A DNA stretch of 50,582 bases, taken from NCBI GenBank assembly GCA_031370645.1, contig JANMQV010000039.1:1-50582 (forward strand), given 5' to 3'. A program made the position numbers and the translations under genes. The DNA comes from Candidatus Eiseniibacteriota bacterium. GTDB taxonomy: Bacteria; Eisenbacteria; RBG-16-71-46; SZUA-252. The notes beneath the pieces are model-generated. The model saw nothing but the letters and a program-made list of their open reading frames with translations. It made no database searches and had not been told where the DNA came from. This document shows, one piece after another, positions 2,595-24,583 of the stretch; position 1 is the first letter of the stretch; every line of letters starts with the position of its first letter.

Positions 2595-2693
2595 AGCGCA
2601 CCTCCTGTCTGAACGGCCAGCCTAGCAGGGGCGCCGACGATCCGCTATAGTGGCTGCGCCTCGATTTCTCATTCAAGGAGGAGCCCCGGTTCC

Positions 2694-3614
2694 GTGTCGG
2701 TCGCCCGTTCGTTTATCACCTGGCTCTCCAACCGCCGAACCTTCACCCGTGCCATCGGAAGCACCGGCATGCGGCTCGGGTTCGCGCGCCGCTTCATCGC
2801 GGGTGAGACCCTGGAGGACGCCCTCCGCGCGAGCGCCGAGCTCAACTCCAAGGGACTCCTCGTCATCCTGAACCAGTTGGGGGAGCACGTCGCCGACCGC
2901 GCGGCGGCGGAGGCGTCGTTCGCCTCCTACCAACGGATCCTCCGCGAGATCGACGCGAAGAAGCTGAACGCCTTCGTTACGGTGAAGCCGAGCCAGTTGG
3001 GACTCGGAATCGATCCGGCCCTCTGTCTCGATCTGACGCGGCGCCTTGTGGCCGACGCGGCCGCGCGGGGGAACTTCTTCGAAATCGACATGGAGGATTC
3101 GCCGACCGTGGACGCCACCCTGGCGCTCTACGAGGGGGTCCGCCGCGACTACGCCAACGTCGGGCTCGCGGTGCAGGCGTATCTCTTCCGCACCGAGGCC
3201 GACCTGAAGCGCCTCCAGCCCCTCCGGCCGAAGATCCGGCTCGTGAAGGGCGCCTACCTGGAACCATCCGACGTGGCGTTTCCCGCGAAGAGCGACGTCG
3301 ACGCGAATTTCATCAAGCTGATGCGGATTCTCTTCGCGGATGGATTCACTCCCGCGGTGGGGAGTCACGACGAGCGGATGATCGAGGCGGCGCGAGCGCT
3401 GGCCGCCGAGTTCCATCGTTCGCCCGACAGCTGGGAAGTTCAGATGCTCCACGGAATCCGGCGCGACCTCCAAGAGCAACTGGTGCGGGACGGCTACCGG
3501 ATGAGGGTCTACGTCACCTACGGCACCGAGTGGGTGCCTTATTTCATGCGACGGCTGGCCGAGCGTCCTGCGAACCTTGGATTCGTGATCAAGAGTCTGC
3601 TGAAGGGGCGCTGA
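2694..3614 (+). CDS. putB: Monofunctional proline dehydrogenase
   Basis: Motifs RFIAGE, IDMED, VQAYLFR, IRLVKGAY, SHD and YFMRRLAERPAN; AAGGAGGA RBS. Confidence 0.92.
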   Translation: MSVARSFITWLSNRRTFTRAIGSTGMRLGFARRFIAGETLEDALRASAELNSKGLLVILNQLGEHVADRAAAEASFASYQRILREIDAKKLNAFVTVKPSQLGLGIDPALCLDLTRRLVADAAARGNFFEIDMEDSPTVDATLALYEGVRRDYANVGLAVQAYLFRTEADLKRLQPLRPKIRLVKGAYLEPSDVAFPAKSDVDANFIKLMRILFADGFTPAVGSHDERMIEAARALAAEFHRSPDSWEVQMLHGIRRDLQEQLVRDGYRMRVYVTYGTEWVPYFMRRLAERPANLGFVIKSLLKGR

Positions 3615-3628
3615 GGAGGAGAAGCGTT

Positions 3629-4087
3629 ATGGGCGAGGCAAAACGAATCGCGGAGCAGCACCGACGAGCCTATCACGGTGAAGCCTGGCATGGACCCTCC
3701 GTCTTCGAGACGCTCCGCGGGGTGACCGCGGCAGCCGCCGCGAAGCGCCCGATCGCCCAAGCGCACACGATCTGGGAGTTGGTTCTCCACCTGACCTCGT
3801 GGGAGCGGATCGTTTGCTCGCGCGTGGAAGGGGAGGTGATCGAGGATTCCCGGGCTCTCGATTGGCCCGCCATGCCGCGGCCCACCGCGACGGCCTGGAG
3901 GGAGGCCCGCGCCGCCCTCGAAGCGGCAGCCGATGAACTTAGGATGGCCATCGCTCGCATGACCGACCGAAAACTTCAGACCAAGCGGGCCGGTGCCACC
4001 CGGACCTATTACGACCTCGTGCATGGGCAAGTCCAACACGCTCTCTACCACGCCGGCCAGATCGCGCTGCTGCGGAAGGGCCGCTGA
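3629..4087 (+). CDS. DinB family protein
   Basis: ATG at 3629 after GAGGAG. Motifs AWHGPS, HTIWELVLH and QHALYHAGQI (His triad). Confidence 0.85.
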   Translation: MGEAKRIAEQHRRAYHGEAWHGPSVFETLRGVTAAAAAKRPIAQAHTIWELVLHLTSWERIVCSRVEGEVIEDSRALDWPAMPRPTATAWREARAALEAAADELRMAIARMTDRKLQTKRAGATRTYYDLVHGQVQHALYHAGQIALLRKGR

Positions 4088-11858: not shown

Positions 11859-12446
11859 ATGAAGATGTCGAAACCGATTCGCGATCTCGCTTCTGCGATG
11901 CTCACCCTCGCCGTGGTGACGCTCGTTGCGGCCTCCTGCTCGAAGGCGCCAAGCAGCGAGCCATCGGCTGCCGCGCCGGACACGATGGCCACGGCCGAGC
12001 GCGGCGCCTACCTCGCGACGGCGATGGGTTGCCACGACTGTCACACGCCGGGTGGCGTCTACGGAACTCCTGACTTCCAACGCGCCTTGTCCGGAAGCGA
12101 AGTGGGCTGGGGTGGGCCGTGGGGCGTTTCCTACGCGAGGAATATCACGCCCGATCCGGTCACCGGGATCGGCGCTTGGACGGAGGACCAGATCGTCCTC
12201 ACCCTGCGGACCGGGAGCCGTCCCGATGGCACCGGTCTCCTCCCCCCGATGCCGTGGCCGAACACGGCATCCCTCAAGCCTCGCGATGTTCGCTCGCTGG
12301 CGAAGTATCTGAAGAGCATCGTGCCGGTGAAGCACGAAGTGCCGATGGCGGTGCTCCCGGGCCAGAAGGCGGCCACGCCCGTCATCGCGCTACCGGCGCC
12401 CGGCGCGTGGGACGCGCCCGCGGCACCGGCGGCCACGACGCCGTAG
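11859..12446 (+). CDS. Monoheme cytochrome c lipoprotein
   Basis: Lipobox AASC, ERGAYLA..GCHDCHTP, NITPDPVTGIG.W and PPMPW (Met axial ligand). Start at 11859 or 11865. Confidence 0.88.
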   Translation: MKMSKPIRDLASAMLTLAVVTLVAASCSKAPSSEPSAAAPDTMATAERGAYLATAMGCHDCHTPGGVYGTPDFQRALSGSEVGWGGPWGVSYARNITPDPVTGIGAWTEDQIVLTLRTGSRPDGTGLLPPMPWPNTASLKPRDVRSLAKYLKSIVPVKHEVPMAVLPGQKAATPVIALPAPGAWDAPAAPAATTP

Positions 12447-12558
12447 CGCGACGCACGGTCCGACGCGGCCGAAACACCCGGCGGTCCGTGATATCCTTCT
12501 CGGGGCGGCGCCCACGCGCCGCCCCGACTTGTTTCCCCCTCATCAAGGAGCCAGGGCC

Positions 12559-13131
12559 ATGACGACCATGACGCACCGTATGATCGAACTTCCCGCGGGA
12601 TTCGGCGCCGCGGACGCCGCGCTGGTCGTGGCTTCTCTTGACGATCAGACCAAACTTCTCTTCAAAGATCTGGAAGGCGCTACGCCCGACGAGCTGCAGT
12701 GGCAGCCGCATCCCGGCATGAACACGATCGGGATGCTCCTCGCCCACATGGCCATCGTGGAGGCGTGGTGGACGCTCATCGTCGTGGCGAAGGCTCACCC
12801 GGCGGAAGTGCAACCGATTCTCGGCATCGGCGACGACGACGACGGCATGCCGATCAAGCCGGGCGCGAAGCCGATCGCGCTTCTGAACGGGAAGGACCTC
12901 GCGTTCTACAACGGCCTCCACGCGAAGGCGCGAGTCTATTTCAAGAAGATGGTCTCCGGAATGAAGGAGTCCGATCTCACGGCGGAAGTGATTCGAAAGC
13001 GCGAGGACGGCACCGAGGTCGGCATCTCGGGTCGCTGGTATCTCTACCACGTGCTCGAGCACTTCTCGGGTCACTACGGCCAGATTCTCCTCCTTCGCCA
13101 CCTCTACAAGGACGCCACGGCGCGTGCCTGA
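12559..13131 (+). CDS. DinB family protein
   Basis: AAGGAG RBS; NTIGMLLAHMAIVE and YHVLEHFSGHYGQI. Confidence 0.85.
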   Translation: MTTMTHRMIELPAGFGAADAALVVASLDDQTKLLFKDLEGATPDELQWQPHPGMNTIGMLLAHMAIVEAWWTLIVVAKAHPAEVQPILGIGDDDDGMPIKPGAKPIALLNGKDLAFYNGLHAKARVYFKKMVSGMKESDLTAEVIRKREDGTEVGISGRWYLYHVLEHFSGHYGQILLLRHLYKDATARA

Positions 13132-14539
13132 TTCGCTCGTCCGGGCTCTCTCCGAACGCGTGCGGGGCCAGGTCACCGACGGCCCCGCCGCGCCGGAGGA
13201 ATTCCGAAGTAATTTCGGACACATCGTCAACGCGACCCCTCGAGCGCTCCTCCGGCCCGCCTCGGCCGACGACGTGGTGGAGGCGATTCGCTTCGCGCGC
13301 TCCAACGGTCTTCACGTCGCCACGCGAGGAGCGGGACACAGCCAGAGCCATCTCGGCGTGAGCGACGGCGGCATTCTCCTCGACATGCGCTCGCTCGGCC
13401 GCTGTCTTCGGATCGACGGCGACGCGCGGACGATCGACGTGGAGGGGGGCGCCGTCTGGCGGAATCTCCTCGACGCGACCTACGGCGAACGGCTCGTCCC
13501 GCCGGTCCTCACGAACAATCTGAACGTCACCGTCGGTGGAACGCTGTCGATCGCGGGAATCGGCGTGGCGTCGTTCCGCCACGGCACGCAAGGGGATCAG
13601 GTCGCGGAACTCGACGTGGTCACGGGAGAAGGGGAGTTGGTGACCTGCGGCCCCGATCGCGAGCCCGATCTCTACTGGTCGGTCGTTTCCGGATTGGGCC
13701 AGGCCGGTGTGATCGTCCGCGCTCGGTTGAAACTTCGCCGCGCGAAGGCGATGACGCGTACCTACTACCTCCTTTACGACGACACCGCGCGCTTCTTTCA
13801 AGACATGAAACGCGCGATGGACGACGGCCGCTGGGATCACATCGAATCGTGGACTTCTCCCTGTCCCCAGGGCACGAAGCCGGTGAACGGGAAGCGGCAG
13901 GTCTTCGCCCGCTGGTTCTATCCCGTGCATTTGACCGTCGAGTTCGACCCCGGCGCTCCGCCCGACGATCGCGCGATGCTCGACGGCTATCGTCCCTACG
14001 AGCTTCTCTACACCGACGACCTCCCAACCCTCGAGTTCCTCGACCGGCTCGCACCGGTGTTCGATCTCTGGAAGCGCGGCGGCACCTGGGAGCACGTTCA
14101 CCCCTGGATGGAGACGGTGCTTCCGTGGGAGACGGCGCCCGCGATGCTCGAAGCGCTCCTGCCCGATCTCTCGCCGGCCATCTTGGTGGGGGGGCACGTA
14201 CTCCTCTGGCCGGCGAAGGGGAGCGCCTCCCGCTCACGACTCTTCATGCGTCCGCCGGGAGAGGACCTCATGGGATTCGGACTTCTCCCGGCGATCCCGG
14301 CGAAATTCTGGGACGAAGCGCGTCCGATGCTCGACATGGCGAGTCGGTTGAGCGTGGCCATGGGGGGAAAGCGCTACCTCTCCGGCTACGTCTCCTTCAC
14401 GCCGGAAGAGTGGCGCGCGCACTTCGGGCCGATGTGGGATCCATTCGTGGCGGCGAAGAAGAGGTGGGATCCGGACGGCATCCTGAACCCGGGCTTCGTG
14501 CCGCTCTCCGGCGGCGCCGCCGCGTCGAAGGGGCGCTGA
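13124..14539 (+). CDS. FAD-linked oxidoreductase of the VAO/PCMH family, cytokinin dehydrogenase-like
   Basis: RGAGHS (covalent-FAD His), TVGGTLS.AG, SGLGQAGVI, WEHVHPW and WDPDGILNPG. Confidence 0.85.
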   Translation: MPDSLVRALSERVRGQVTDGPAAPEEFRSNFGHIVNATPRALLRPASADDVVEAIRFARSNGLHVATRGAGHSQSHLGVSDGGILLDMRSLGRCLRIDGDARTIDVEGGAVWRNLLDATYGERLVPPVLTNNLNVTVGGTLSIAGIGVASFRHGTQGDQVAELDVVTGEGELVTCGPDREPDLYWSVVSGLGQAGVIVRARLKLRRAKAMTRTYYLLYDDTARFFQDMKRAMDDGRWDHIESWTSPCPQGTKPVNGKRQVFARWFYPVHLTVEFDPGAPPDDRAMLDGYRPYELLYTDDLPTLEFLDRLAPVFDLWKRGGTWEHVHPWMETVLPWETAPAMLEALLPDLSPAILVGGHVLLWPAKGSASRSRLFMRPPGEDLMGFGLLPAIPAKFWDEARPMLDMASRLSVAMGGKRYLSGYVSFTPEEWRAHFGPMWDPFVAAKKRWDPDGILNPGFVPLSGGAAASKGR

Positions 14540-14967
14540 TGGCGGCCCCGGTTCTCTTCGGCACGCCCGCGTGGTGCGAGGCGCTCCTTACGACGGTGAA
14601 TGGATCGAGCGAATATCGAAACGCGGCGGCGAAGTGGGGCGTGGGGTTCAACGGGAATCTGCTCTTCGCGTTCGGGGCGGGCGGCGGATTGGCGAAATCG
14701 CTTCATCTCTTCCTGCGGCTTCAAGCGGGGCGGTGCGAGGCGGCGGAGTTCGTGCCGGGGCCCTCGCATTCCGAGGCGGGATTCACGCTTCGCGCGCCGT
14801 TCCCCGTTTGGCGCGAGATTCTGGAGCGCCGAATGCTCGCGTCGACCGCGATCCTCACGGGGAAGATGAAGGTGGAAGGGGATTCGATCGCGCTTCTGCG
14901 GCACGCGGGAGCGAACCGGGCGTTGATTCACTGCACCGCATCCGTCGCGACGGAATTTCCCACGTAG
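14539..14967 (+). CDS. SCP2 sterol/lipid-binding domain protein
   Basis: TGATG overlap; FGTPAWCEAL..VN.S.EY..AAAKW and AILTGKMKVEGD. Confidence 0.75.
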   Translation: MAAPVLFGTPAWCEALLTTVNGSSEYRNAAAKWGVGFNGNLLFAFGAGGGLAKSLHLFLRLQAGRCEAAEFVPGPSHSEAGFTLRAPFPVWREILERRMLASTAILTGKMKVEGDSIALLRHAGANRALIHCTASVATEFPT

Positions 14968-15004
14968 CGCCGCGCGAACGCCGGGCGGCGTCCGCGTCGC
15001 CGCA

Positions 15005-15781
15005 CTAGGCGCTCGCCCGGATTCGCTTCCTCGCCGTCCCGCCCGCCGCCCCGCGCTTCGCCGACGTTCGCTTGGCCTTCGCCGGCTTCGAGCGCGCACT
15101 TCCGGCCGCGCTCTTCGGCTTCTTCGCCCGCCCCGCTTCCCACGCCTCGACCGAGATCGGCTTTCCCGTCTCGAGGTAGGAGCGGAGGGAATCGAGCGCC
15201 CACGACCAAGCCGCCTTCATCTTCTCGGCGTCGCGTTTCGTTGCCAGCCGGGAGTGCGTCGCTTCCACACGCGCTCTCGGCCCCTTGGCACCGCTCGCGG
15301 TCGTGATCGCAAATTCCACGATCGAGCCGGGCGCGTGTTTCTCGTTCTCCCACGTCATGCGAAGCCGGCGGGGGCGCGCCACCGCCAGGAATCGCCCGCG
15401 ATCGCCGTCCCCGTTGGAATAGGAGCCGCCCACTTCCACGTTCGCCCGCGCGCCGCGCGTGAACCAGCGCGAGAGATCGGCCGGCCGTGATAGCGCGTCG
15501 AAGGCCTTCGGAGCCGAGGCGGCCACGAGGCGCGACACCGAGATGGAGTAGCCGTCGGGCTTCTGGTGCTTGTCGCGGAGGCCCTGTTCGCGCTCGTACT
15601 GGACGGTGACCATCTGTGCCCACCAGGGGGAGAGGTCGCGGCTTTCGTGAAGCCAGGCCGCGGTCGCCTTGTGCCCCTTCGCGGCGGCGCCCCACCGGTT
15701 CAGGATGCGGAACCACTGAGACCAGCTCCTGCCGGTTCTCGTCTCCACCGCTTCGTCCGAAATCTTCGCGTCCGCCGCCAT
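15005..15781 (-). CDS. SRPBCC/AHSA1 domain protein with a DUF4287-like N-terminus and Lys/Ala/Arg-rich tail
   Basis: SDEAVETRTGRSWSQWF..WWAQMVTVQYE, then DLSRWF..RLRMTW..WSWALDSLRSYLE; GGAGG RBS. Confidence 0.8.
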   Translation of the reverse strand: MAADAKISDEAVETRTGRSWSQWFRILNRWGAAAKGHKATAAWLHESRDLSPWWAQMVTVQYEREQGLRDKHQKPDGYSISVSRLVAASAPKAFDALSRPADLSRWFTRGARANVEVGGSYSNGDGDRGRFLAVARPRRLRMTWENEKHAPGSIVEFAITTASGAKGPRARVEATHSRLATKRDAEKMKAAWSWALDSLRSYLETGKPISVEAWEAGRAKKPKSAAGSARSKPAKAKRTSAKRGAAGGTARKRIRASA

Positions 15782-15956
15782 GTGTTCCCTCCGGATTCGT
15801 GCGTCGAGGATTCGAGTTTCCGACTCATGACACCCGAAGTCAATCGCGACGGGGTGCCGCGCGGGTACCGAAACAGAAACGCGGCAGGCGACGGAGGTCC
15901 TGCGTGCGTCCCCTCCGGCGCGCCGCCGCGCCCACGTATCACTTTCTACAGAGGGT

Positions 15957-16436
15957 CTACCGAGTCGCGAGTACCGCCTCGGAACGGTGCTTCGATACCG
16001 ACCGAAGCGCCGCCATGAGATCCGCGTAAGGTAACGAGCCTTCGCCCTTTCCCTCGGACTTTTCCGCGTGCAGGACCAAATCGTTCAGAGCCACGATCCC
16101 TCGGACCGTGCCGTCGGCGTCCGCGACCGGAAGTCGCCGCACCTGGGCTTCGCCCATCTTGCGAAGGGCGATCTTGAGGTCGTCCGTGGGGAGACAGGTC
16201 TTCGGCGTCTGGTTCATGACGTCGGCGACCGTAATGGCGGACGGCGAGAGGCTCTTCATCGTGGCGGCCATGCAGATGTCACGATCCGTGATGACACCGA
16301 TCAGCTTCTGCGTGCCACCCTCCACGACGGGGACGATGCCGCAGTCCCGCCGCCACATGATCATGGCGGCGTGGGCCAGGTCATGGTGCGGCGTGCAGCA
16401 CTCGGGTTCTCTTGTCATCAGTTCTTCGATTTTCAT
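15957..16436 (-). CDS. CBS-pair protein (Hrp1/YhcV-like)
   Basis: ATG at 16436 after AAGGAG; MKIEELMT..CGIVPVV..GVITDRDIC..QVRRLPV..GIVALNDL. Confidence 0.9.
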   Translation of the reverse strand: MKIEELMTREPECCTPHHDLAHAAMIMWRRDCGIVPVVEGGTQKLIGVITDRDICMAATMKSLSPSAITVADVMNQTPKTCLPTDDLKIALRKMGEAQVRRLPVADADGTVRGIVALNDLVLHAEKSEGKGEGSLPYADLMAALRSVSKHRSEAVLATR

Positions 16437-16503
16437 GGCCCGACTCCTTTCGGTTAACGAAAGCGCACAGCAGCACGGGAACATCATGCGCACGGCGTCG
16501 AAC

Positions 16504-16520
16504 AGCAAACCCCGTGCCAC
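16504..16520 (-). promoter_or_regulatory. Sigma-54 (-24/-12) promoter for the CBS gene
   Basis: Minus strand reads GTGGCACGGGGTTTGCT, a perfect TGGCAC-N5-TTGC. IHF-like CAA-N4-TTA sites at 16530-16539 and 16572-16581. Confidence 0.85.
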
Positions 16521-16671
16521 GAGTCAGCCTAACTGTTTGGCCCTTTCGGCCTTCGTCACCGGTTTCCGCCCCAACAAGTTAGCGCACGGAACCTGCTCCG
16601 CGGATCCCGACGCCTCCGCCTGCTGCAGGCGCCTGGTTGTAACGTCTGCTTCGCGAAAGGAAAACCTGACG

Positions 16672-16884
16672 AAAAAGGGCGCGGCGGCCCCGACGCAAGC
16701 GCGCTAGGAACAAACTCGCCCGCGGCGGCGCGGGGAAGAGGGACGCCTCGAAGCGAGGGTGAGACCAACCCCATCGCTTCAAAGCCGGAGCCTGGGAGCG
16801 CGGTCGCGGCCGCTGCTCCCTGTTCCCTGGTCCCTGTTGGCCGCCGCGGGTTCTTTATGGCGGTTCGGCGATCATTTCGACGAG
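16672..16884 (-). ncRNA. Candidate sigma-54-dependent small RNA (about 210 nt)
   Basis: Lies downstream of the second -24/-12 promoter and has no credible ORF. Contains three CAGGGA repeats, three hairpins, and a short GC stem plus U-run near 16672. Confidence 0.35.
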
Positions 16885-16894
16885 GCGTTGGTGC

Positions 16895-16911
16895 TGCATA
16901 CCCCGTGCCAC
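16895..16911 (-). promoter_or_regulatory. Second sigma-54 (-24/-12) promoter
   Basis: Minus strand reads GTGGCACGGGGTATGCA, 15/16 identical to the first promoter. CAA-GGGG-TTA at 16963-16972 sits at the same 53-bp offset as in promoter 1. Confidence 0.75.
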
Positions 16912-17057
16912 CGAACTCGCCGCCACCGCGCGCGATGGCGCGGGTCTCAAGCATCCCTGGTCCAAGGGGTTACCCTCCCGGACCCTCCGGACTGCTACCT
17001 CCGCAGCATTGAGACGTGGCGCCGCCGCTGCCAAGCTGTCAGGTAGGAGGGATGTCG

Positions 17058-18278
17058 ATGTCAGGACGTGGAAAACCGACGGTACGCCAGCGCTTGCCCG
17101 CGAAAAACGGAGCGAGTGCGCGCGGCGTCCCTATGATTCCGATTCCGGCTTCCGAACGGCTCGATCTTCAACGCGTGCAGCCGATCCTTCCGCAACTCAT
17201 CGACTCGCTCGACGAAGCGGTTCTCGTGGTCGACCACGAGCAACGCGTCGTGGCGGCGAACCGGCGATACGTCGACATCTTCGGACTCGGCGGCCCCGTC
17301 TGCGACGCGAAGCGCTGTCCCGACCGGTGGCTCGGCGGCGATTCGGGCCGCGACGAAGCCTCCCGCTGCGGCGCGTGCGACGTCATCGAAACGCGGAAGC
17401 CGACCCGGCGCCTTCGGCTCGTGCCCGACTCGCGCGGCATTTCTCGCCGGTGGGAAGGAACGATGAGCCCGGTGCTCAACGCGAAGGGCGAAGTGACGCA
17501 TGTCGTGGAAGTCTGGCGCGATGTCTCGGAGCGCTCCCGGCTGGAGAGTCAGCTGAGCCATAGCGAGCGCCTCGCGTCGCTCGGGATTCTGGCCGCGGGC
17601 GTGGCCCACGAGATCAACAATCCGCTCGCGTCGGTCCTCGTCGCGGTGGAGTCGGTGCAGCGCCGCCTGGTCGCGGGGAGCGAAGTCGAGGGGGGCTGCA
17701 CGCCCGATCCGGAAATCCTCGATCTCCTGGAAGTGATGGAGCGGGAGACGCGGCGCTGCCGCGACATCTCGGACAAGCTGACGCTCCTGGCGCAGCCCCC
17801 GACCGGGCCGAGCGCGTGGGTCGACCTGAATCACTCGGTTCGCGACACGCTCACGCTCCTTCGTTATGCGATGAAGCGGCAGGGCGTGGAGGTAGAGGAG
17901 TCGCTCGATCCAGGGCTTCCCGTCATCTGGGCCCGCGAGAGCGGCCTTCGAAGCGTCTGCATGAACCTGATGCTGAATGCCGTGCAGGCGATGCCGGGTG
18001 GCGGATTGCTTTGCGTCCGCACCGGCGCGGCCGGAACGCGGGTCTCGCTCGAAGTGGCCGACAGCGGGCCGGGGATCGCGCCCGCGAATCTCGAGCGCAT
18101 CTGGGATCCCTTCTTCACCACCAAACCGCCGGGATCCGGCACCGGCCTGGGGCTCTCCATCTCGCAGCGAATCGTGGCCCGCCACGCGGGGCAGATCATC
18201 GCCGAGAATCGCGCCGAAGGAGGCGCCAAATTCACGGTGGAACTCCCTGTGCAGGGTCCGGGAGGAGAAGGTGTCTGA
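17058..18278 (+). CDS. Cytoplasmic PAS-domain sensor histidine kinase (NtrB-like)
   Basis: AGGAGG RBS (start 17058; alternatives 17052 and 17133). Cys-bearing PAS, H-box AGVAHEINNPL, NLMLNAVQA, DSGPG, DPFFTTK and GTGLGL. Confidence 0.92.
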   Translation: MSGRGKPTVRQRLPAKNGASARGVPMIPIPASERLDLQRVQPILPQLIDSLDEAVLVVDHEQRVVAANRRYVDIFGLGGPVCDAKRCPDRWLGGDSGRDEASRCGACDVIETRKPTRRLRLVPDSRGISRRWEGTMSPVLNAKGEVTHVVEVWRDVSERSRLESQLSHSERLASLGILAAGVAHEINNPLASVLVAVESVQRRLVAGSEVEGGCTPDPEILDLLEVMERETRRCRDISDKLTLLAQPPTGPSAWVDLNHSVRDTLTLLRYAMKRQGVEVEESLDPGLPVIWARESGLRSVCMNLMLNAVQAMPGGGLLCVRTGAAGTRVSLEVADSGPGIAPANLERIWDPFFTTKPPGSGTGLGLSISQRIVARHAGQIIAENRAEGGAKFTVELPVQGPGGEGV

Positions 18279-19644
18279 GGCGCGCCTTCTTCTCGTGGAC
18301 GACGAGGAGTCGTTCCGCCAAATCGTGAGCCGAGAGTTGCGCCGCGCCGGCTACCACGTGGACGAGGCCGGATTGGTGGAGGAAGCGCGCCGTTCGCTCG
18401 CGCAGCAGAGTTACCACGTCGTGCTCCTCGACGTGCGCCTCCCCGATGGAAACGGCCTCGATCTGCTCCAGAGCATCAAGCAGTCGCTCCCCGCCACGCA
18501 GGTCGTGATCCTCACCGCGTTCGGGACCGTGCAGGAGGCGATCCGCGCCATGAAGCACGGCGCGTTCGATTTCCTCTCGAAGCCGTGCAAGCTCGGCGAG
18601 ATCGAAGCGGTCATTGAGAAAGCGTTGGAGGTCCAGTCGCTGGAGCGCGGACACGCGGTGTTGCAGCGCGACCTCGAGCGGCTCCAGCCGAGCGAGCGAA
18701 TCGTGGGGGACACCCCCGGCATCCACGAGGTTCACCGTCTTATTCAGCGCGTCGCGCAGACCGACTCCACCGTGCTCATCCGCGGCGAGAGCGGCGTCGG
18801 GAAAGAGCTCGTCGCTCGGGCCGTGCATCGCCAGAGCCGACGAACGAAACAGCCGTTCGTGGTCGTCGATTGCGCGTCGCTCCACGAAAACTTGCTGCAA
18901 AGCGAACTCTTCGGACACGAGAAGGGGGCCTACACCGGCGCGGTTCGCCTGAAGCACGGCCTCTTCGAGGTGGCCGATCGCGGCACGATCTTCCTCGATG
19001 AGATCGGCGAGGTGACGCCGCCGCTCCAGGTGAAACTCCTCCGGGTTCTCGAGACCGGAATCTTTCGGCGCGTGGGCGGCACCGCCGACGTCCGAGTCGA
19101 CGTGCGGGTCATCACCGCGACGAACCGGGCGCTGGAGGCGATGATGCAAGCGGGCTCGTTCCGCGAAGATCTCTACTACCGGCTCAATGTTTTCACCATC
19201 CCGATCCCGCCGCTTCGCGAGCGCCGGGAAGACATCCCGCTCCTCGTGGCGCACTTCATTCGCAATTCGGCCATCGTGCCGAAGCGAAACGTCGAGATTT
19301 CAGCGGAGGCGATGGATGTGTTGATCCGCTATCCCTGGCCCGGGAACGCTCGGGAGCTGGCGAACGTGGTGGAGCGGGCGCTCATTCTCTGCGAAGGGGA
19401 GCGCCTCGTTCCGGAAAATTTGCCGATCGGGGTCCGGCGCTCCACCCCTGAAGGCGTCCCGTCGGACGGAGGGCGCCGGCCGACACTCGAAGAGGCGGAG
19501 CGCCGCTACATCCTCCAGGTGCTCGACGACTGCAACGGCCATCGCCAGAAGGCCGCCACGATTCTCGGGATCAGCGAGCGGAACCTCTATCGCAAGCTGA
19601 AGCAGTTCGGCGTGAGTGGCGCCCGCGAGCTCTTGCACTCCTGA
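18271..19644 (+). CDS. Sigma-54-dependent response regulator (REC-AAA+-Fis HTH, NtrC family)
   Basis: GTG after GGAGG. LLVDDE, LLDVRLPD, GESGVGKE, SELFGHEKGAYTGA, FLDEIGE, FREDLYYRL, WPGNAREL and a C-terminal HTH. Confidence 0.95.
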   Translation: MSEARLLLVDDEESFRQIVSRELRRAGYHVDEAGLVEEARRSLAQQSYHVVLLDVRLPDGNGLDLLQSIKQSLPATQVVILTAFGTVQEAIRAMKHGAFDFLSKPCKLGEIEAVIEKALEVQSLERGHAVLQRDLERLQPSERIVGDTPGIHEVHRLIQRVAQTDSTVLIRGESGVGKELVARAVHRQSRRTKQPFVVVDCASLHENLLQSELFGHEKGAYTGAVRLKHGLFEVADRGTIFLDEIGEVTPPLQVKLLRVLETGIFRRVGGTADVRVDVRVITATNRALEAMMQAGSFREDLYYRLNVFTIPIPPLRERREDIPLLVAHFIRNSAIVPKRNVEISAEAMDVLIRYPWPGNARELANVVERALILCEGERLVPENLPIGVRRSTPEGVPSDGGRRPTLEEAERRYILQVLDDCNGHRQKAATILGISERNLYRKLKQFGVSGARELLHS

Positions 19645-19688
19645 GGCGCGATTCCGGCGACGCCGTGCCTGACGCGCCGAGCAGGGAA

Positions 19689-19708
19689 GCCTGACGAATT
19701 CGTCAGGC
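19689..19708. promoter_or_regulatory. Perfect 20-bp palindrome GCCTGACGAATTCGTCAGGC (possible activator binding site or hairpin)
   Basis: Self-complementary. Extra CCTGAC half-site 22 bp upstream (19668); half-sites also at 16665, 17038 and 17060. Confidence 0.55.
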
Positions 19709-19791
19709 GAACGCCGGACCTCGGCCGATCGTTCTCTCGCCGAGGTCTACTCCAGTCCCACCGATTCATCACTTACGGGCGAGGGCGCCCA

Positions 19792-20187
19792 TCCCTTCGA
19801 ATCGTCGCCTGCGCCTGCGCGGCGCCTGGCGCCGACGCGCTCACCCTATTCCTCGAGAGTGAGGGCTGCATCACCGTCCACTGCGCCTCTCACGAGTCGC
19901 TTCTCGAGGAGATCGTCCGAAGTCCGGCCGATGCCGTCGTCTTTGGGTTCGCCCCTCCCTGCTCGCTCGAGCCGGCGCTTCTTCGCATGATCCGCCGCCT
20001 CCTCCCCGATACGCCGCTCATCATCGTGGCGCGCGACGCGACGCTCGAGATGGAACGGATGTTCCGCGAGTATCGCCCCCTTTTTGTCGCGGTCCCTCCT
20101 TGGGATCGTGCGGAGATGCGGGACGTGGTCCGCGCCATTCGTGCGCATCGAGTCAAGAAAGGACTCTCCGCCGCATCACCTTCCTAG
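19792..20187 (+). CDS. Degenerate (pseudo-)receiver-like domain protein, start uncertain
   Basis: Frame is open from 19645 to 20187: SLRIVACAC..DALTLFLESEGCITVHCASHESLLEEIVRSPADAVVFG..LLRMIRRLLPDTPLIIVA. First ATG is only at 19987. Confidence 0.5.
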   Translation, partial: SLRIVACACAAPGADALTLFLESEGCITVHCASHESLLEEIVRSPADAVVFGFAPPCSLEPALLRMIRRLLPDTPLIIVARDATLEMERMFREYRPLFVAVPPWDRAEMRDVVRAIRAHRVKKGLSAASPS

Positions 20188-20254
20188 CCCCCACGCGTCG
20201 TCGCGTCGCTCCGCCCCAGCGCCGTGGCGGCTGCCGGTCGTGTATAGTCCGGAG

Positions 20255-21493
20255 ATGCCCGCTCGCACGTGGACAAAACACCCGCTTTGGCGATTCCTCG
20301 GCAGGCCGATCGTCCTCAGCGTCCCCTTCGCACTCTTCTTCTTTGTGACCAATCGATCGGAATCCGAGCCTTTCTTCAAGGCTCTGGGGGAGTTCTACCT
20401 CGTCGCGCTCGTCTTTTCGCTCTGGGTGAACACGGCCGTCGAGTTGAACCGGAAGTGGATGCTCCCGCACCTCCCCATGGGGACGCCCGCTGGAGGTGAG
20501 TCGCGGGACCTGACGCTTCAGATCGCCTCCTTCGCCGTTGCCGCCGCCCTCGGAAGCGTCGGCGCGGCCCTAACGCTTCACTTCACCTTCTTTCCCGAAA
20601 TACTCGGCTCGGCCACCGCGGTCGCGCGCGTCCTCCTCTTCACCGGGCTCTTCAACGCGCTCTTCCTCAGTTACATCTATGCCAGGCGATATCAACGCCG
20701 CTTCGTCGACCGCGTGCGCGACGAGGCCGAACGCGACGCCCGAGAGGGGCAGGAGATGCGGATCGCCGCCGAGATTCAGCAGGCGCTCCTCCCGCCCCGC
20801 TCTCGGTCGGATACGTGGTATGCCGCCGCGGGCGCATCGATTCCGTGCCGCTCGATCGGCGGTGATTTCTTCGAGTACTTCGATTTGCCCGATGGGCGCG
20901 TCGGGTTCGCGCTCGCCGACGTGGCGGGGAAGGGCCCGCCCGCGGCGCTTCTCGCGGCGATGGTGCAGGGGATTTTCGATTCGCACGCCCGTCGAGGAGA
21001 CGGCCCGGCGGCGACGTTGGCCCGCGTGAACGAGGCGATCTCCGCTCGGGAGATCGAAGCCCGCTTCGCCACCGTCTTCTACGCCGTCTTAGGGCGCGAT
21101 GGCGTGCTCCACTTCAGCAACGCCGGACACAACCCTCCGTTCGTCATTCGACGGCGGGCGGTCGTCGGCCGGCTCGAGACGGGTGGCCTCATGATCGGCC
21201 CGTTCAAGGACGCTCAATTCGAGGAGGGGATGTCGCGTCTCGAGCCGGGCGACGTCCTGGTCGTCTACTCCGACGGCGTTACCGACGCGGAGGCGCCGGA
21301 TGGGGAGCAGTTCGGCGAGGAGCGTCTTCTGGCGGCGCTGAGCGGATTCGGTACGGAGTCGGCGGAGGAGATTCGCGACGGACTCCTCGGCGCCATTCGG
21401 ACGTTCGTCGCCGATCGCCCTCCGTTCGACGATGTCACGGTGATGACCGTGCGCTACCTCGGGCAGACGTCATCGAGTCCGACCACGTCTTGA
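20255..21493 (+). CDS. Membrane-bound PP2C/SpoIIE (RsbU-like) Ser/Thr phosphatase
   Basis: Four N-terminal TM helices, then EMRIAAEIQQALLP, IGGDFFE, ADVAGKG, NAGHNPP, YSDGVTD and DDVT. Confidence 0.92.
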   Translation: MPARTWTKHPLWRFLGRPIVLSVPFALFFFVTNRSESEPFFKALGEFYLVALVFSLWVNTAVELNRKWMLPHLPMGTPAGGESRDLTLQIASFAVAAALGSVGAALTLHFTFFPEILGSATAVARVLLFTGLFNALFLSYIYARRYQRRFVDRVRDEAERDAREGQEMRIAAEIQQALLPPRSRSDTWYAAAGASIPCRSIGGDFFEYFDLPDGRVGFALADVAGKGPPAALLAAMVQGIFDSHARRGDGPAATLARVNEAISAREIEARFATVFYAVLGRDGVLHFSNAGHNPPFVIRRRAVVGRLETGGLMIGPFKDAQFEEGMSRLEPGDVLVVYSDGVTDAEAPDGEQFGEERLLAALSGFGTESAEEIRDGLLGAIRTFVADRPPFDDVTVMTVRYLGQTSSSPTTS

Positions 21494-22325
21494 GGAGCGT
21501 GGCGGCGAGGATCACCCCTCCTCCCGCCAGCGACCACGGCCCCGGAATTTCCCCGTTGATGACGAGCGCCCAGATCGGATTGAGCGCCGGCTCCACCAGA
21601 AGAAGCACGGACGCCTCGAATGCCGGCACGTGGCGCGACGCTTTCGTCAGGAAGACGTAGCCGAGCCCGAGCTGCACGACACCGAGCCCCGCCAGCACCG
21701 CGCCGTCTACCGGAGTAAAGTGCGTGACCGGGAGCGCCATCGGGAGCGCGATGAGGAACGCGGTGATATTCCCGCTCACGACCGCACCGGCCGCGGAACC
21801 GCGATAGTCTCCCGACCCACGACCCATCCACCGAAGCGACATGATCGTGAAGGCCCACGCCACGCCGCTCAGCACCGCCAGCAGATTTCCCGCGACCGGA
21901 TCGGGCGCGGTCCTCCTCGGCGCCTCGACCCCCACGAAGAAGAGCGCGAGGCCCGCCACGATGAGTCCCATCACCCCGAGATCGACGGGGCGGTTTCGCT
22001 CGCGCAGGAGCCAGGGCGCCGCGAGAAGGATGTAGAGCGGTGCGGTCGACTGGAGAAAGATTGTGTTCGCGGAAGTCGTGAGACGGTTGGCGAGGACGAA
22101 GAGGAGAACCGTCGCGGCGTAGGGAAGCCCCGCGACGACCACGCGCCACGACCAACCGCGTCGCGCCTCCGGCATGAGGAGCAACACCACGATCGCCGCG
22201 ATTCCGGAGCGGAACGAAGCGATCTGCCAGGGCGTCAGCCCGCACGCCTTGATCCCCGCGCCGCCGGCGGAGAAGATCAGGGCTGCGGCCAAGATCTGAA
22301 GTCGCCCCGTGGCTCGTTCGCTCAT
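21435..22325 (-). CDS. DMT/EamA family transporter
   Basis: About 10 TM; TTSANTIFLQSTAP and LLVEPALNPIW. Its 3' end overlaps the convergent PP2C gene by 59 bp. Confidence 0.9.
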   Translation of the reverse strand: MSERATGRLQILAAALIFSAGGAGIKACGLTPWQIASFRSGIAAIVVLLLMPEARRGWSWRVVVAGLPYAATVLLFVLANRLTTSANTIFLQSTAPLYILLAAPWLLRERNRPVDLGVMGLIVAGLALFFVGVEAPRRTAPDPVAGNLLAVLSGVAWAFTIMSLRWMGRGSGDYRGSAAGAVVSGNITAFLIALPMALPVTHFTPVDGAVLAGLGVVQLGLGYVFLTKASRHVPAFEASVLLLVEPALNPIWALVINGEIPGPWSLAGGGVILAATLLKTWSDSMTSARGSARSSP

Positions 22326-22392
22326 GCCGCCGGAGTGTACGATACCGCTTCGACTTGGGCCGGAGATTCGGGGCTTATTCCGGGGGCTCCCC

Positions 22393-22421
22393 TTGACAGG
22401 GCGACCGACGGTGGCTACCGT
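22393..22421 (+). promoter_or_regulatory. Sigma-70-type promoter for the PKD gene
   Basis: TTGACA-N17-TACCGT. Confidence 0.55.
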
Positions 22422-22570
22422 CCATGGGGTCGGGCGCCGGGCCGGAACTCGGGCGCCTCTTCGGTCCCCATCCCCACGTCACGTCGAATCCCGTACCTTC
22501 GGTCCCCGCCCCCTCGAATTAGCCGGCGCGAAGTCGCGCACCCTTCGCGCCATGAGAGGCAGGTGGATTC

Positions 22571-24583
22571 ATGCGGTGGTTCCGGTACTTCCTTCCGTTC
22601 TTGATCCTCGTATCGCTCGCTCCCTCGGCACACTCGCAGTACGTCTTCCTCGACGCTAACGGCGACGGCGTCAACGACAGCGCCGATCAACTCCCGGCCA
22701 GCGGATCGGTGGATCTCGACGTCTGGTTCGTGACCGACCACAACCGCGACGGGAGTGCGGTATTTTGTTCCTCCGATCCGTCCGACCCTCTCACGATCAA
22801 TACGTATGAGATCGTGCTTCGCGTACTCAATGGCCGCGTCGCATTCGGACCGATGCGGAATCGAATGCCCTTCTCGGGGGATCCGGTCCGCTTCGCGAGC
22901 CGCGGCGATACGACGGGGACCACGGTCTACCACAATGGGTACGGCTCGTCCGACCTCTTTCCGCCGGGGCGGTATCGTGTGGCAACGCTGACGGTGGAGG
23001 TGATCGAGGGCTCGCCCTCGCTTTCCTTCCTCGGGTATAGCCCCGTCGAACCGGTCGATTTGACCGCGTTCGGCACGCGCTGCTCCGGGATCGGCGAGGA
23101 CAACACCGCGATCCTCGGCGAAGAGTTCCGCGACGCATCGGGCATCGGGCGGCCCGCCGCCGACGCAGGCGGCCCCTACCACGGAGTCGTGAATCAGGAC
23201 GTCCGGTTCAACGGCGAGCGTTCGAGCGATCCCGACGGCGATCCGCTCGACTTCGCGTGGTCGTTCGACGACGGCGGGAGCGCGGCTGGTTCGATCGCCA
23301 TTCACGCCTTCGGTACCGTCGGAACGCACACGGCGACGCTCACCGTTTCGAGCCATTCCGGGAGCGACGACGACGTTGCCGCGGTCGAGATCGGGGAACC
23401 GAATCGCCCCGTCGCCGTGGCCGGCGGACCCTATCACGGAGAGCCGGGCATTCCGGTTCCGTTCGACGGAAGCAGTTCCCACGATCCCGACGGCGATCCG
23501 CTCACCTACGCCTGGAACTTCGGCGACGGGGGGCATTCATCGGGAACGTTTCCGCATCACATGTATGCGAGCGAGGGGACTTTCACCGTGGGGTTGACGG
23601 TCGGCGACGGCGTTTACACGGCATCCGACGAGACCAACGCGACGATCACCGCGGTCGTTCGGCCGGACAATCATCCGCCGGTCGCCAACGCGGGCGGGCC
23701 GTATGAGGGAATCGAAGATCGCTGGATCCAATTCGACGCCACACGATCGAGCGATCCGGATGACGATTTCCTGAACGTTCGCTGGGAATTCGGCGACGGC
23801 AAGTCCGGATTCGGCATCGCGCCCGTTCACGCGTTCGACGTGGCCGGCTCCTACACGGCGGTCGTTCACGTCGACGATGGAATCGCCCACGCCACCGCTC
23901 AGGCCTCCGTCACCATCGAGAGCGCCTTTCCGGCGAGCGCGTTTCTCGACGCGCGGAACGACGTCGTCAATGTGGATGATGCGGCGGAATTCGTGATCGT
24001 GCGATTCGAGCCCGGCGATGGAGGAGCGTTCTCGTCGGAGGAGGTCGATCCCGAAGGCGTCGTGCTCCGCGTCACCACCTTCGACGGCGGCAGCATCGAC
24101 ATTCCCGCCGACGGACCGGCGATCTACCAGAACGACAGCGATCAGAACGGCGTCATCGAATACGTGACGCGATTCCCGCGTGCGCGATTCCGGGAACTCC
24201 GGGCCTCCGGCGACATCCAGGGGAGAACGCATCTCGAGCTCATCGGCGGGCTCTATGCGGGCGGGGGGTACAACGGCCCGTTCGACGCCACGTTCGTGAA
24301 CTCGAGTTCGTTCGACCTGACCGTCACGCCGAATCCGTTCAATCCGACGGCGCATATCATCCTTCACACGCGGGGCGACGGTCCGATGACCGCCCGGCTC
24401 TTCGACATCCGCGGGCGCCGCGTGAAGACGATTCTCCACGGCGAGCCGCTGAAAGCCGGACGGCACGACCTGATCTTCGAGGCGCGGGATGACGGCGGCT
24501 CGGTGCTCGCGTCGGGCGTCTACTTCCTTCAGATCACGAGCGCCGAAGGGTCGCGAACCGGCAGGGTCGTGGTCGCGAAGTAA
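22571..24583 (+). CDS. Secreted protein with 3 PKD domains and a C-terminal FlgD-Ig/T9SS-like sorting domain
   Basis: Signal peptide; three A.AGGPY.G..F....S.DPD.D.L...W.F.DG repeats; C-terminal TPNPFNP..FDIRGRRVKT..DDGG..LASGVYFLQI. Confidence 0.88.
   Translation: MRWFRYFLPFLILVSLAPSAHSQYVFLDANGDGVNDSADQLPASGSVDLDVWFVTDHNRDGSAVFCSSDPSDPLTINTYEIVLRVLNGRVAFGPMRNRMPFSGDPVRFASRGDTTGTTVYHNGYGSSDLFPPGRYRVATLTVEVIEGSPSLSFLGYSPVEPVDLTAFGTRCSGIGEDNTAILGEEFRDASGIGRPAADAGGPYHGVVNQDVRFNGERSSDPDGDPLDFAWSFDDGGSAAGSIAIHAFGTVGTHTATLTVSSHSGSDDDVAAVEIGEPNRPVAVAGGPYHGEPGIPVPFDGSSSHDPDGDPLTYAWNFGDGGHSSGTFPHHMYASEGTFTVGLTVGDGVYTASDETNATITAVVRPDNHPPVANAGGPYEGIEDRWIQFDATRSSDPDDDFLNVRWEFGDGKSGFGIAPVHAFDVAGSYTAVVHVDDGIAHATAQASVTIESAFPASAFLDARNDVVNVDDAAEFVIVRFEPGDGGAFSSEEVDPEGVVLRVTTFDGGSIDIPADGPAIYQNDSDQNGVIEYVTRFPRARFRELRASGDIQGRTHLELIGGLYAGGGYNGPFDATFVNSSSFDLTVTPNPFNPTAHIILHTRGDGPMTARLFDIRGRRVKTILHGEPLKAGRHDLIFEARDDGGSVLASGVYFLQITSAEGSRTGRVVVAK

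Follow-up and report, generated by a model that had tools for sequence, protein, structure and literature searches.

What is transcribed from a sigma-54 promoter when no gene can be recognised behind it? The question is raised by a 622 bp intergenic region in a 50,582-base stretch of DNA (contig JANMQV010000039.1 of assembly GCA_031370645.1, analysed as a whole and called the window below) from Candidatus Eisenbacteria, a phylum that to our knowledge is known from metagenomes only. The region lies between a gene for a CBS-domain protein and a divergent gene pair encoding a PAS histidine kinase and an NtrC-type sigma-54 activator, and it holds two sigma-54-type promoter elements directed towards the CBS gene. 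A first-pass annotation of the sequence had described these as twin promoters of matching architecture controlled by the adjacent two-component system, and had proposed that the one farther from the CBS gene drives an undescribed structured small RNA (sRNA) or a long structured leader. The best explanation of the region is that it is the control region of a stress module conserved in Candidatus Eisenbacteria, in which related genomes carry the small heat-shock gene hsp20 at the position where the window lacks a credible open reading frame (ORF). The RNA from the farther promoter has, in our estimation, an even chance of being the orphaned leader plus trailer transcript of a lost hsp20, and is not a proven regulator.

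Two sigma-54 promoters beside a sigma-54 activator

The elements and genes on which the argument turns are the following.

16520-16505, minus strand: promoter 1 (P1), GTGGCACGGGGTTTGC, TGGCAC-N5-TTGC pattern with 0 mismatches
16911-16896, minus strand: promoter 2 (P2), GTGGCACGGGGTATGC, TGGCAC-N5-TTGC pattern with 1 mismatch (TTGC to ATGC)
15957-16436, minus strand: gene for a CBS-pair protein of 159 amino acids (aa), predicted to be served by P1 (Pfam CBS 4e-23; exact protein present in the protein collection)
17058-18278, plus strand: gene for a PAS sensor histidine kinase of 406 aa (Pfam PAS_4, HisKA and HATPase_c; 406-aa form present in the protein collection)
18271-19644, plus strand: gene for an NtrC-type response regulator and sigma-54 activator (Pfam Response_reg, Sigma54_activat 1e-68 (AAA+) and HTH_8)

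Both promoter elements have the general form GTGGCACGGGGT(T/A)TGC, with the GG and GC dinucleotides of the sigma-54 -24/-12 arrangement 10 nt apart; the twin elements of the first-pass annotation are present and make good sigma-54 promoters (0 and 1 mismatch). They are the sole matches to TGGCAC-N5-TTGC with at most one mismatch in the window. By count, two such matches are ordinary (shuffle mean 1.47), and what is remarkable is their placement, 391 nt apart on one strand of a single intergenic region and beside a sigma-54 activator gene. The activator is of the GAFTGA type, its loop motif reading GAYTGA, a variant known to be functional. Transcription is predicted to start at about 16885 from P2 and at about 16494 from P1, the latter roughly 58 nt ahead of the start codon of the CBS gene, which has the ribosome-binding site GGAG 7 nt ahead of its ATG. 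A search for an overlapping sigma-70 promoter found none.

A duplicated segment as the origin of P1 and P2 was considered and rejected, the flanks being unlike beyond the 16-nt core (shuffles scored as high in 133 of 500 cases upstream and 336 of 500 downstream). The architecture shared by the two promoters consists of this core and a CCAA-N4-TTA motif, discussed below; to that extent the earlier description stands, and it fails for the flanks and for the activator site, of which P1 has no copy of its own.

A palindrome at a conserved distance from P2

An alignment of 27 kinases was used to retrieve 80 loci from species-representative genomes. Most analyses are based on loci L001-L029, which are Eisenbacteria-type (kinase 45-63% identity); the other 51 loci (33-43% identity, mostly Geobacter-like) entered only the locus-wide tblastn, the nucleotide searches and the palindrome count. 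Homologues of the kinase are labelled Candidatus Eisenbacteria. The comparison brought out one further element:

17028-17042, no strand assigned: palindrome CTGCCAAGCTGTCAG, probable upstream activating sequence (UAS) of the regulator (predicted), 2 nt ahead of the ribosome-binding site of the kinase gene

This palindrome is the sole perfect match to CTGNCA-N3-TGNCAG in the window. Of the 80 loci, 13 have the motif, every one of them within L001-L029, where it adjoins the kinase start or follows the regulator gene. In the window it lies 117 nt from P2, inside the range of about 100-150 bp expected of a UAS, and the corresponding palindrome-to-promoter distances in L002, L004, L007, L013 and L022 are 115, 114, 117, 118 and 119 nt, respectively. 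When positions 12001-23000 of the window were taken together with the 29 Eisenbacteria-type loci, 15 of 35 palindrome/promoter pairs were 110-119 nt apart and 8 further pairs 90-99 nt apart, the latter where two palindromes form a tandem; 20 dinucleotide shuffles gave a mean of 1.3 pairs, with none at 110-119 nt. Judged by this comparison, P2 is a real and conserved promoter, and the palindrome is probably the activator site to which the NtrC-type regulator would bind. The control by the adjacent two-component system that the first-pass annotation had suggested thus gains an activator pair of the appropriate type and a site at a conserved distance from P2, with binding of the regulator itself predicted from these motifs. 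The conserved spacing also makes P2 the positional counterpart of the promoter that precedes hsp20 in related genomes.

P1 differs in this respect. Its nearest palindrome-like site is 508 nt away, beyond the range expected of a UAS, and between P1 and P2 there is no palindrome-like site, the best candidate being wrong at 4 of the 10 specified positions. With no copy nearby, P1 would need the palindrome at 508 nt or an element that was not recognised.

A separate block at 16993-17013, between the palindrome and P2, is conserved with L002, L004 and L022 in an alignment of these regions (A2), and could represent either a promoter of the kinase operon itself or another site for a protein.

An hsp20 gene at the equivalent position in related genomes

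In 4 of the 80 loci (L002, L004, L013 and L022) a gene for an Hsp20 protein of 142-144 aa is found upstream of the kinase gene; it is encoded on the other strand and follows a GG-N10-GC promoter; the L004 product matches Pfam HSP20 at 2e-22. The gene is directly divergent from the kinase gene in L002, L004 and L022; its L013 counterpart is some 2 kb upstream of the kinase gene, and there the palindrome occurs a second time, ahead of the hsp20 promoter. Downstream of hsp20, on the same strand, L002, L004 and L013 carry a CBS gene, and no separate promoter is apparent for the CBS genes of the relatives. Alignment A2 matches P2 to the promoters of hsp20 in L002, L004 and L022; for L013 it picks a neighbouring GG-N10-GC site, 19 nt upstream of the better promoter there. 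Synteny extends further, as L001, L002, L004 and L022 share the flanking FAD (flavin adenine dinucleotide) oxidase, EamA and SpoIIE genes with the window. The window therefore has the same kinase and regulator, palindrome, promoter spacing and downstream CBS gene as the relatives with an hsp20 operon.

Hsp20 itself is absent. A tblastn search of the window with the Hsp20 proteins of L002, L004 and L013 gave a best E value of 0.48, outside the interval between the CBS and kinase genes, and a hidden Markov model built from 4 Hsp20 proteins, run on all six frames of 16437-17057, did no better than E 2.1. The Hsp20 proteins of four closer relatives produced nothing below E 0.2 in the whole window by tblastn, and on the interval alone short matches at chance level (best E 0.044 among the matches listed). 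Because syntenic relatives have hsp20 at the same promoter position, the ORF-less stretch behind P2 is most simply read as the remains of gene loss, and we infer loss in this genome rather than gain of hsp20 elsewhere. Closer relatives point the same way: kinases 94, 88, 86 and 77% identical to that of the window each match an Hsp20 cluster by source label and contig size (4883, 2620, 7629 and 4397 nt), and on the contig of 2,620 nt the kinase and Hsp20 genes must be neighbours. That close relatives appear to keep hsp20 suggests that its loss in the window genome was recent.

The cargo behind this regulatory cassette differs elsewhere too. In L007 the cassette (117 nt) at promoter 3777 would drive a gene for a NuoF-like protein (2106-3656; Complex1_51K 1e-43), and in L020 the cassette (116 nt) at promoter 1296 would drive a gene for a universal stress protein (695-1219; Usp 2e-30). 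On the evidence of these predicted regulatory arrangements, the regulator's cargo is variable between genomes, comprising Hsp20 with or without the CBS protein, a universal stress protein, a NuoF-like protein and, as set out below, RNAs without an ORF.

We posit the following sequence of events. The PAS kinase would phosphorylate the NtrC-type activator, which would bind the palindrome at 17028-17042; the intervening DNA would loop, possibly bent at the CCAA-N4-TTA motif, and sigma-54 polymerase would fire at P2, 117 nt away. In the relatives the promoter equivalent to P2 would yield an hsp20 messenger RNA, with or without CBS. In the window, where hsp20 appears to have been lost cleanly, the RNA from P2 would either end at weak terminators or run on into the CBS gene, which P1, a second consensus sigma-54 promoter, would serve directly.

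The stretch behind P2

The predicted transcript and its internal features, all on the minus strand, are as follows.

16671-16885, minus strand: ORF-less predicted transcript from P2, about 215 nt long when counted to the U5 run and about 175 nt if transcription stops after the first terminator-like hairpin
16740-16826, minus strand: two stable internal hairpins (fold compared with shuffles; inverted repeat I4)
16671-16734, minus strand: two terminator-like hairpins, 16734-16719 followed by CGAGTTTGTT and 16691-16676 followed by T5
16817-16836, minus strand: three CAGGGA repeats with a 7-nt period, (CAGGGAN)x3 (Tandem Repeats Finder period 7, 3.7 copies)

The stretch is without a credible ORF, as had been noted at first pass. 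ORFs overlapping it have a guanine-plus-cytosine (GC) content at third codon positions of 0.54-0.73, compared with 0.78-0.87 for the window ORFs that pass a filter on this measure; ORFs in the interval have no Pfam hit, and 0 of the 7 that were looked up are present in the protein collection. The hairpins and the U5 end described in the first-pass annotation are likewise present, with the qualification that the terminator-like stems are no stabler than shuffles (z -1.3 for 16734-16719 and +0.6 for 16691-16676). Five terminator-like sites fall within 1 kb, where 0.9 are expected.

The three CAGGGA copies at a 7-nt period (16836-16817) had been taken at first pass as a possible sign of an RNA that sequesters CsrA. 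The repeat is real and the sponge idea is weak: the 215-nt transcript contains 3 GGA, compared with 3.2 expected, all of them in the repeat (transcript positions 53-69), and the third CAGGGA copy lies in a predicted stem. The search of Rfam that the first-pass annotation had suggested found no matching family, either for the whole window at the gathering score or for 16400-17150 at E up to 10, where three eukaryotic microRNA or long non-coding RNA matches appeared at chance level. Searches of the 80 loci with the interval (blastn and nhmmer) returned only matches of chance level, except for one of 48 nt by the kinase start of L004.

ORF-less units beside the same regulator in other genomes

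Sigma-54 promoters followed by a stretch without an ORF also occur among the relatives, on the other side of the kinase and regulator genes. A unit of about 205 nt, R1, follows the regulator gene in L014, L018, L019, L021 and L027, where it stands behind tandem palindromes and a sigma-54-like promoter site of the form CGGCCC-N5-CTTGC.

L018 6636-6850, L019 6648-6864, L021 6642-6856, L027 6671-6886 and L014 6673-6889: copies of R1
L026 3687-3884: diverged copy of R1

The mean identity of R1 among the five genomes is 0.90, above that of the regulator gene (0.86) and of the flanks (0.68-0.70). Its consensus fold has three domains, with compensatory changes in 3 pairs, and its end is U-rich. We regard R1 as a candidate for a new family of sigma-54-dependent RNAs. 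A different unit of about 205 nt, R2, follows the regulator gene in the two closest syntenic loci (L002 6126-6332 and L004 6687-6894), downstream of palindromes and of a promoter of the form TGGCAC/GGGCAC-N5-TTGC, and has a U7 terminator at its end; its identity is 0.91, compared with 0.87 for the regulator gene and 0.69-0.71 for the flanks (promoter region 0.71). The R1 covariance model gives weak full-length matches to R2 (E 0.021 and 2.3), and neither unit has a match in Rfam. In L008, L015 and L028 a third block of conserved sequence, likewise downstream of the regulator gene, was considered as an RNA and set aside, its pattern looking like that of a convergent protein-coding gene.

The window has its own traces behind the regulator gene. 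A perfect 16-nt palindrome, CTGACGAATTCGTCAG, at 19691-19706 aligns with similar palindromes in L001, L002 and L004. The segment GTCCCACCGATTCATC at 19755-19770 aligns with the sigma-54 promoters of the same three loci and lacks GG and GC (a short match, from MAFFT and reading by eye); it is possibly a dead promoter.

Weighing gene loss against other readings

Several findings weigh against the reading of the P2 product as a leftover of hsp20. First, P2 fits the consensus at 6 of 6 and 3 of 4 positions and equals or betters the hsp20 promoters of the relatives; a promoter that has not decayed fits a retained function, whether an RNA of its own or read-through into the CBS gene. The putatively dead promoter at 19755-19770 sharpens the point, as an intact P2 beside a seemingly decayed element elsewhere in the locus favours some retained function for P2. 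Second, the two internal hairpins are more stable than shuffles (16826-16790, -19.4 kcal/mol, z -2.5; 16790-16740, -24.9 kcal/mol, z -3.0), and the transcript unit has terminator-like ends of its own, the second of which locally resembles the R2 terminator (a score that 5 of 300 shuffles attained with L004 and 85 of 300 with L002). Third, in seven loci strongly conserved ORF-less sigma-54 units stand beside the orthologous regulator, so that an sRNA output of this regulator system has precedent. Fourth, the case from hsp20 has gaps: co-location of hsp20 and kinase in the close relatives is deduced from matching contig sizes rather than from DNA that was seen, and the best 120 of 375 hits include no Hsp20 from the two largest contigs of close relatives (42,618 and 51,068 nt), so that some close relatives may also lack hsp20. 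Lastly, comparison of the interval with the hsp20 leaders and trailers of L002, L004, L013 and L022, which are distant relatives, went beyond shuffles in 0 of 8 cases, so the derivation from a leader plus a trailer is deduced from position. In the same comparison a resemblance of the tail of the 16734-16719 hairpin to that of the L013 hsp20 terminator was tried and dropped as not significant.

One rival reading is that P2 drives an independent, functional sigma-54-dependent sRNA, base-pairing or protein-binding, which has replaced hsp20 as the divergent output of the two-component system. P2 is intact at the conserved distance from the palindrome, the stretch has no ORF, and the RNA would contain, besides its stable hairpins and terminator-like ends, a C/U-rich CCCUCUUCCCC stretch and the GGGA repeat. 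The relatives show that ORF-less units in this system can be better conserved than the neighbouring gene (0.90-0.91, compared with 0.86-0.87 for the regulator gene and 0.68-0.71 for flanks), and the window transcript has a weak collinear resemblance to the L002/L004 unit in the hairpin at 16744-16787 (E 5.1) and in the terminator (5 of 300 shuffles). Against this, neither covariance model detects the window transcript: the best match of the R1 model to the interval is 16794-16820 (E 9.7) and that of the R2 model is the hairpin just named, each a single hairpin among many equal chance hits. Aligned globally with the L002/L004 unit, the transcript does not score beyond shuffles (z 1.7 and 0.3), the fold of the whole predicted transcript is of modest stability (z -1.8, with 6 of 200 shuffles equally stable), GGA is not enriched, no Rfam family matches, and relatives carry hsp20 at the same position. 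The structured sRNA first proposed thus falls short of an established sRNA gene; we consider it a possibility of the rather unlikely kind. A broader version, in which this family of PAS-kinase/NtrC-type regulators has sRNAs as regular outputs and a third such RNA replaced hsp20 here as a working stress-induced riboregulator, asks for slightly more, and we hold it to be doubtful.

The remaining part of the first proposal, a long structured leader, would make P1 and P2 tandem promoters of the CBS gene, with the 449 nt from the P2 start to the CBS ATG as a regulated leader and the hairpins as attenuators. About 100 nt separate hsp20 from the CBS gene in L002 and L004, where the CBS gene has no separate promoter and is thus probably co-transcribed from the promoter orthologous to P2, and the short terminator-like stems of the window, no stabler than shuffles, would be compatible with read-through. 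The segment 16850-16840 can, moreover, pair without a mismatch with part of each terminator region (inverted repeats I6 and I7), and this pairing is used in the minimum-energy fold; the complementary segments are, however, low-complexity GC repeats that match elsewhere too (I3 and I8). P1 is a perfect consensus promoter that would suffice alone, and the Rfam searches recognised no ligand or protein sensor element. Attenuation in a tandem-promoter leader strikes us as decidedly improbable.

A small protein encoded between the promoters has very little to recommend it: a 22-codon ATG frame near 16774 and a 67-aa TTG frame at 16579-16782 do exist, but they lack a Shine-Dalgarno sequence at the proper distance, their third-position GC is 0.64-0.66 (compared with the 0.78-0.87 given above), and the searches of Pfam and of the protein collection described for the interval ORFs came back empty. 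It is just as hard to credit that both promoter motifs are chance matches and neither a working promoter, since the number of shuffles with at least two matches at up to 1 mismatch (45 of 100) has to be set against their joint location in a single intergenic region beside a sigma-54 activator, on the strand that codes for the downstream gene, and against the conservation across genomes of the position of P2 relative to the palindrome.

The reading of the P2 product as the remnant transcript of an hsp20 operon thus keeps its place, with the even chance given at the outset. What the locus offers in any case is a testable regulon model for one Eisenbacteria two-component system, made up of a palindrome, a spacing of about 117 nt, a sigma-54 promoter and variable cargo. 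It also cautions against calling sRNAs from a promoter and hairpins alone, as the equivalent promoter is placed to drive a protein gene in relatives. Should the transcript prove functional, it would illustrate how a regulatory RNA can arise where a gene was lost.

The CCAA-N4-TTA motifs and the IHF label

The first-pass annotation had also assigned each promoter a site for integration host factor (IHF) of the form CAA-N4-TTA. These sites exist on the plus strand at 16572-16581 and 16963-16972, each beginning 52 nt past the first base of its promoter, and the two offsets are identical. They belong to an extended motif, CCAA-N4-TTA, which is present three times in this region.

16962-16972, plus strand: CCAAGGGGTTA, CCAA-N4-TTA, resembling the IHF core, between the palindrome and P2
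16571-16581, plus strand: CCAACAAGTTA, CCAA-N4-TTA, at the same offset from P1 as 16962-16972 from P2
16530-16540, minus strand: CCAAACAGTTA, a third CCAA-N4-TTA, inverted relative to 16571-16581 and 10 nt upstream of P1

The whole window has 4 copies of the extended motif, 3 of them here, compared with 0.56 expected, and 4 were reached by 1 of 100 shuffles; an inverted pair sits just upstream of P1. The label itself is weak, as the core alone is present and neither CAA-N4-TTA site comes within 1 mismatch of the full IHF consensus WATCAANNNNTTR. None of the 46 window ORFs scanned against Pfam (13 + 33) encodes RpoN, IHF/HU, CsrA or Hfq.

The 10-mer GGACCAGGGA (minus strand) occurs twice in the region, at 16954-16963, where it lies 43 nt upstream of P2 and abuts CCAA-N4-TTA, and at 16824-16833, inside the CAGGGA repeat.

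Comparison with known sigma-54 systems

Our literature search turned up no paper joining Eisenbacteria and sigma-54, and for sigma-54 with small heat-shock genes it brought up mostly papers of no relevance. The genes for the sRNAs GlmY and GlmZ are under the control of GlrK/GlrR, sigma-54 and IHF in Enterobacteriaceae, and they are the closest working analogue of the present locus (PMC3045617). The two share an NtrC-type regulator, palindromic sites upstream of a sigma-54 promoter, IHF-like sites in between and an ORF-less product, and in our relatives the ORF-less units also adjoin regulator genes. They differ in the binding site, which is TGTC-N10-GACA there and CTGNCA-N3-TGNCAG here, and in that no overlapping sigma-70 promoter was found in the window; there is no sequence or Rfam relation, and the RNA of the window is putative and would stand in place of a lost hsp20.

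For the heat-shock cargo, the small heat-shock gene ibpB of Escherichia coli offers a parallel, being reported to have a sigma-54 promoter (PMC2831329, which cites Kuczynska-Wisnik 2001). An Hsp20-family gene likewise stands behind a sigma-54 promoter in L002, L004, L013 and L022. These loci belong to another phylum, their likely activator system is a dedicated adjacent PAS kinase/regulator pair with a conserved palindrome, and the window itself has no hsp20.

RNAs of the CsrB/RsmY/RsmZ type sequester CsrA by many GGA motifs, mostly in hairpin loops and spread along the RNA. The predicted P2 transcript resembles them in being ORF-less with GGA motifs, and two of its three repeats read ACAGGGA, similar to the core of a CsrA-binding site. 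Unlike these RNAs it has just 3 GGA, crowded within 20 nt, unenriched and one of them in a stem, and no match to Rfam.

A sole promoter that is sigma-54-dependent and controlled by a response regulator of the NtrC family also characterises the genes for the sRNA CrcZ, under CbrB, and for the Qrr sRNAs, under LuxO, the latter as reported in PMC10162802. P2 resembles these promoters in its sigma-54 type and in its predicted regulator; there is no homology, and any function of the window RNA is putative.

Neighbouring genes and minor observations

Three further genes flank the module.

12992-14539, plus strand: FAD oxidase (Pfam)
20084-21493, plus strand: SpoIIE-type phosphatase (Pfam)
21435-22325, minus strand: EamA transporter (Pfam)

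A composition profile of 13000-20000 revealed no foreign-looking segment. The stretch 14540-15000 is without an assigned gene, and in 14928-15781 two long minus-strand ORFs overlap, with domains only in 15005-15781 (AHSA1/SRPBCC and DUF4287). Beyond the stop codon of the regulator gene its frame stays open for 180 codons (19645-20187), with no ATG, GTG or TTG before 19987 and no Pfam hit; by eye this frame looks similar to a receiver-like ORF found ahead of the SpoIIE gene in L001, and it is possibly a decaying gene.

In the kinase, the PAS-region cysteines C82, C87, C104 and C107 are invariant or nearly so across the 27 aligned kinases, which hints at a metal, iron-sulfur or redox sensor. The best non-self relative of the CBS protein in the protein collection is 76% identical and the kinase has twelve relatives at 84-94%, so the two sides of the control region may differ in history. 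The identical CBS protein is present on 6 contigs.

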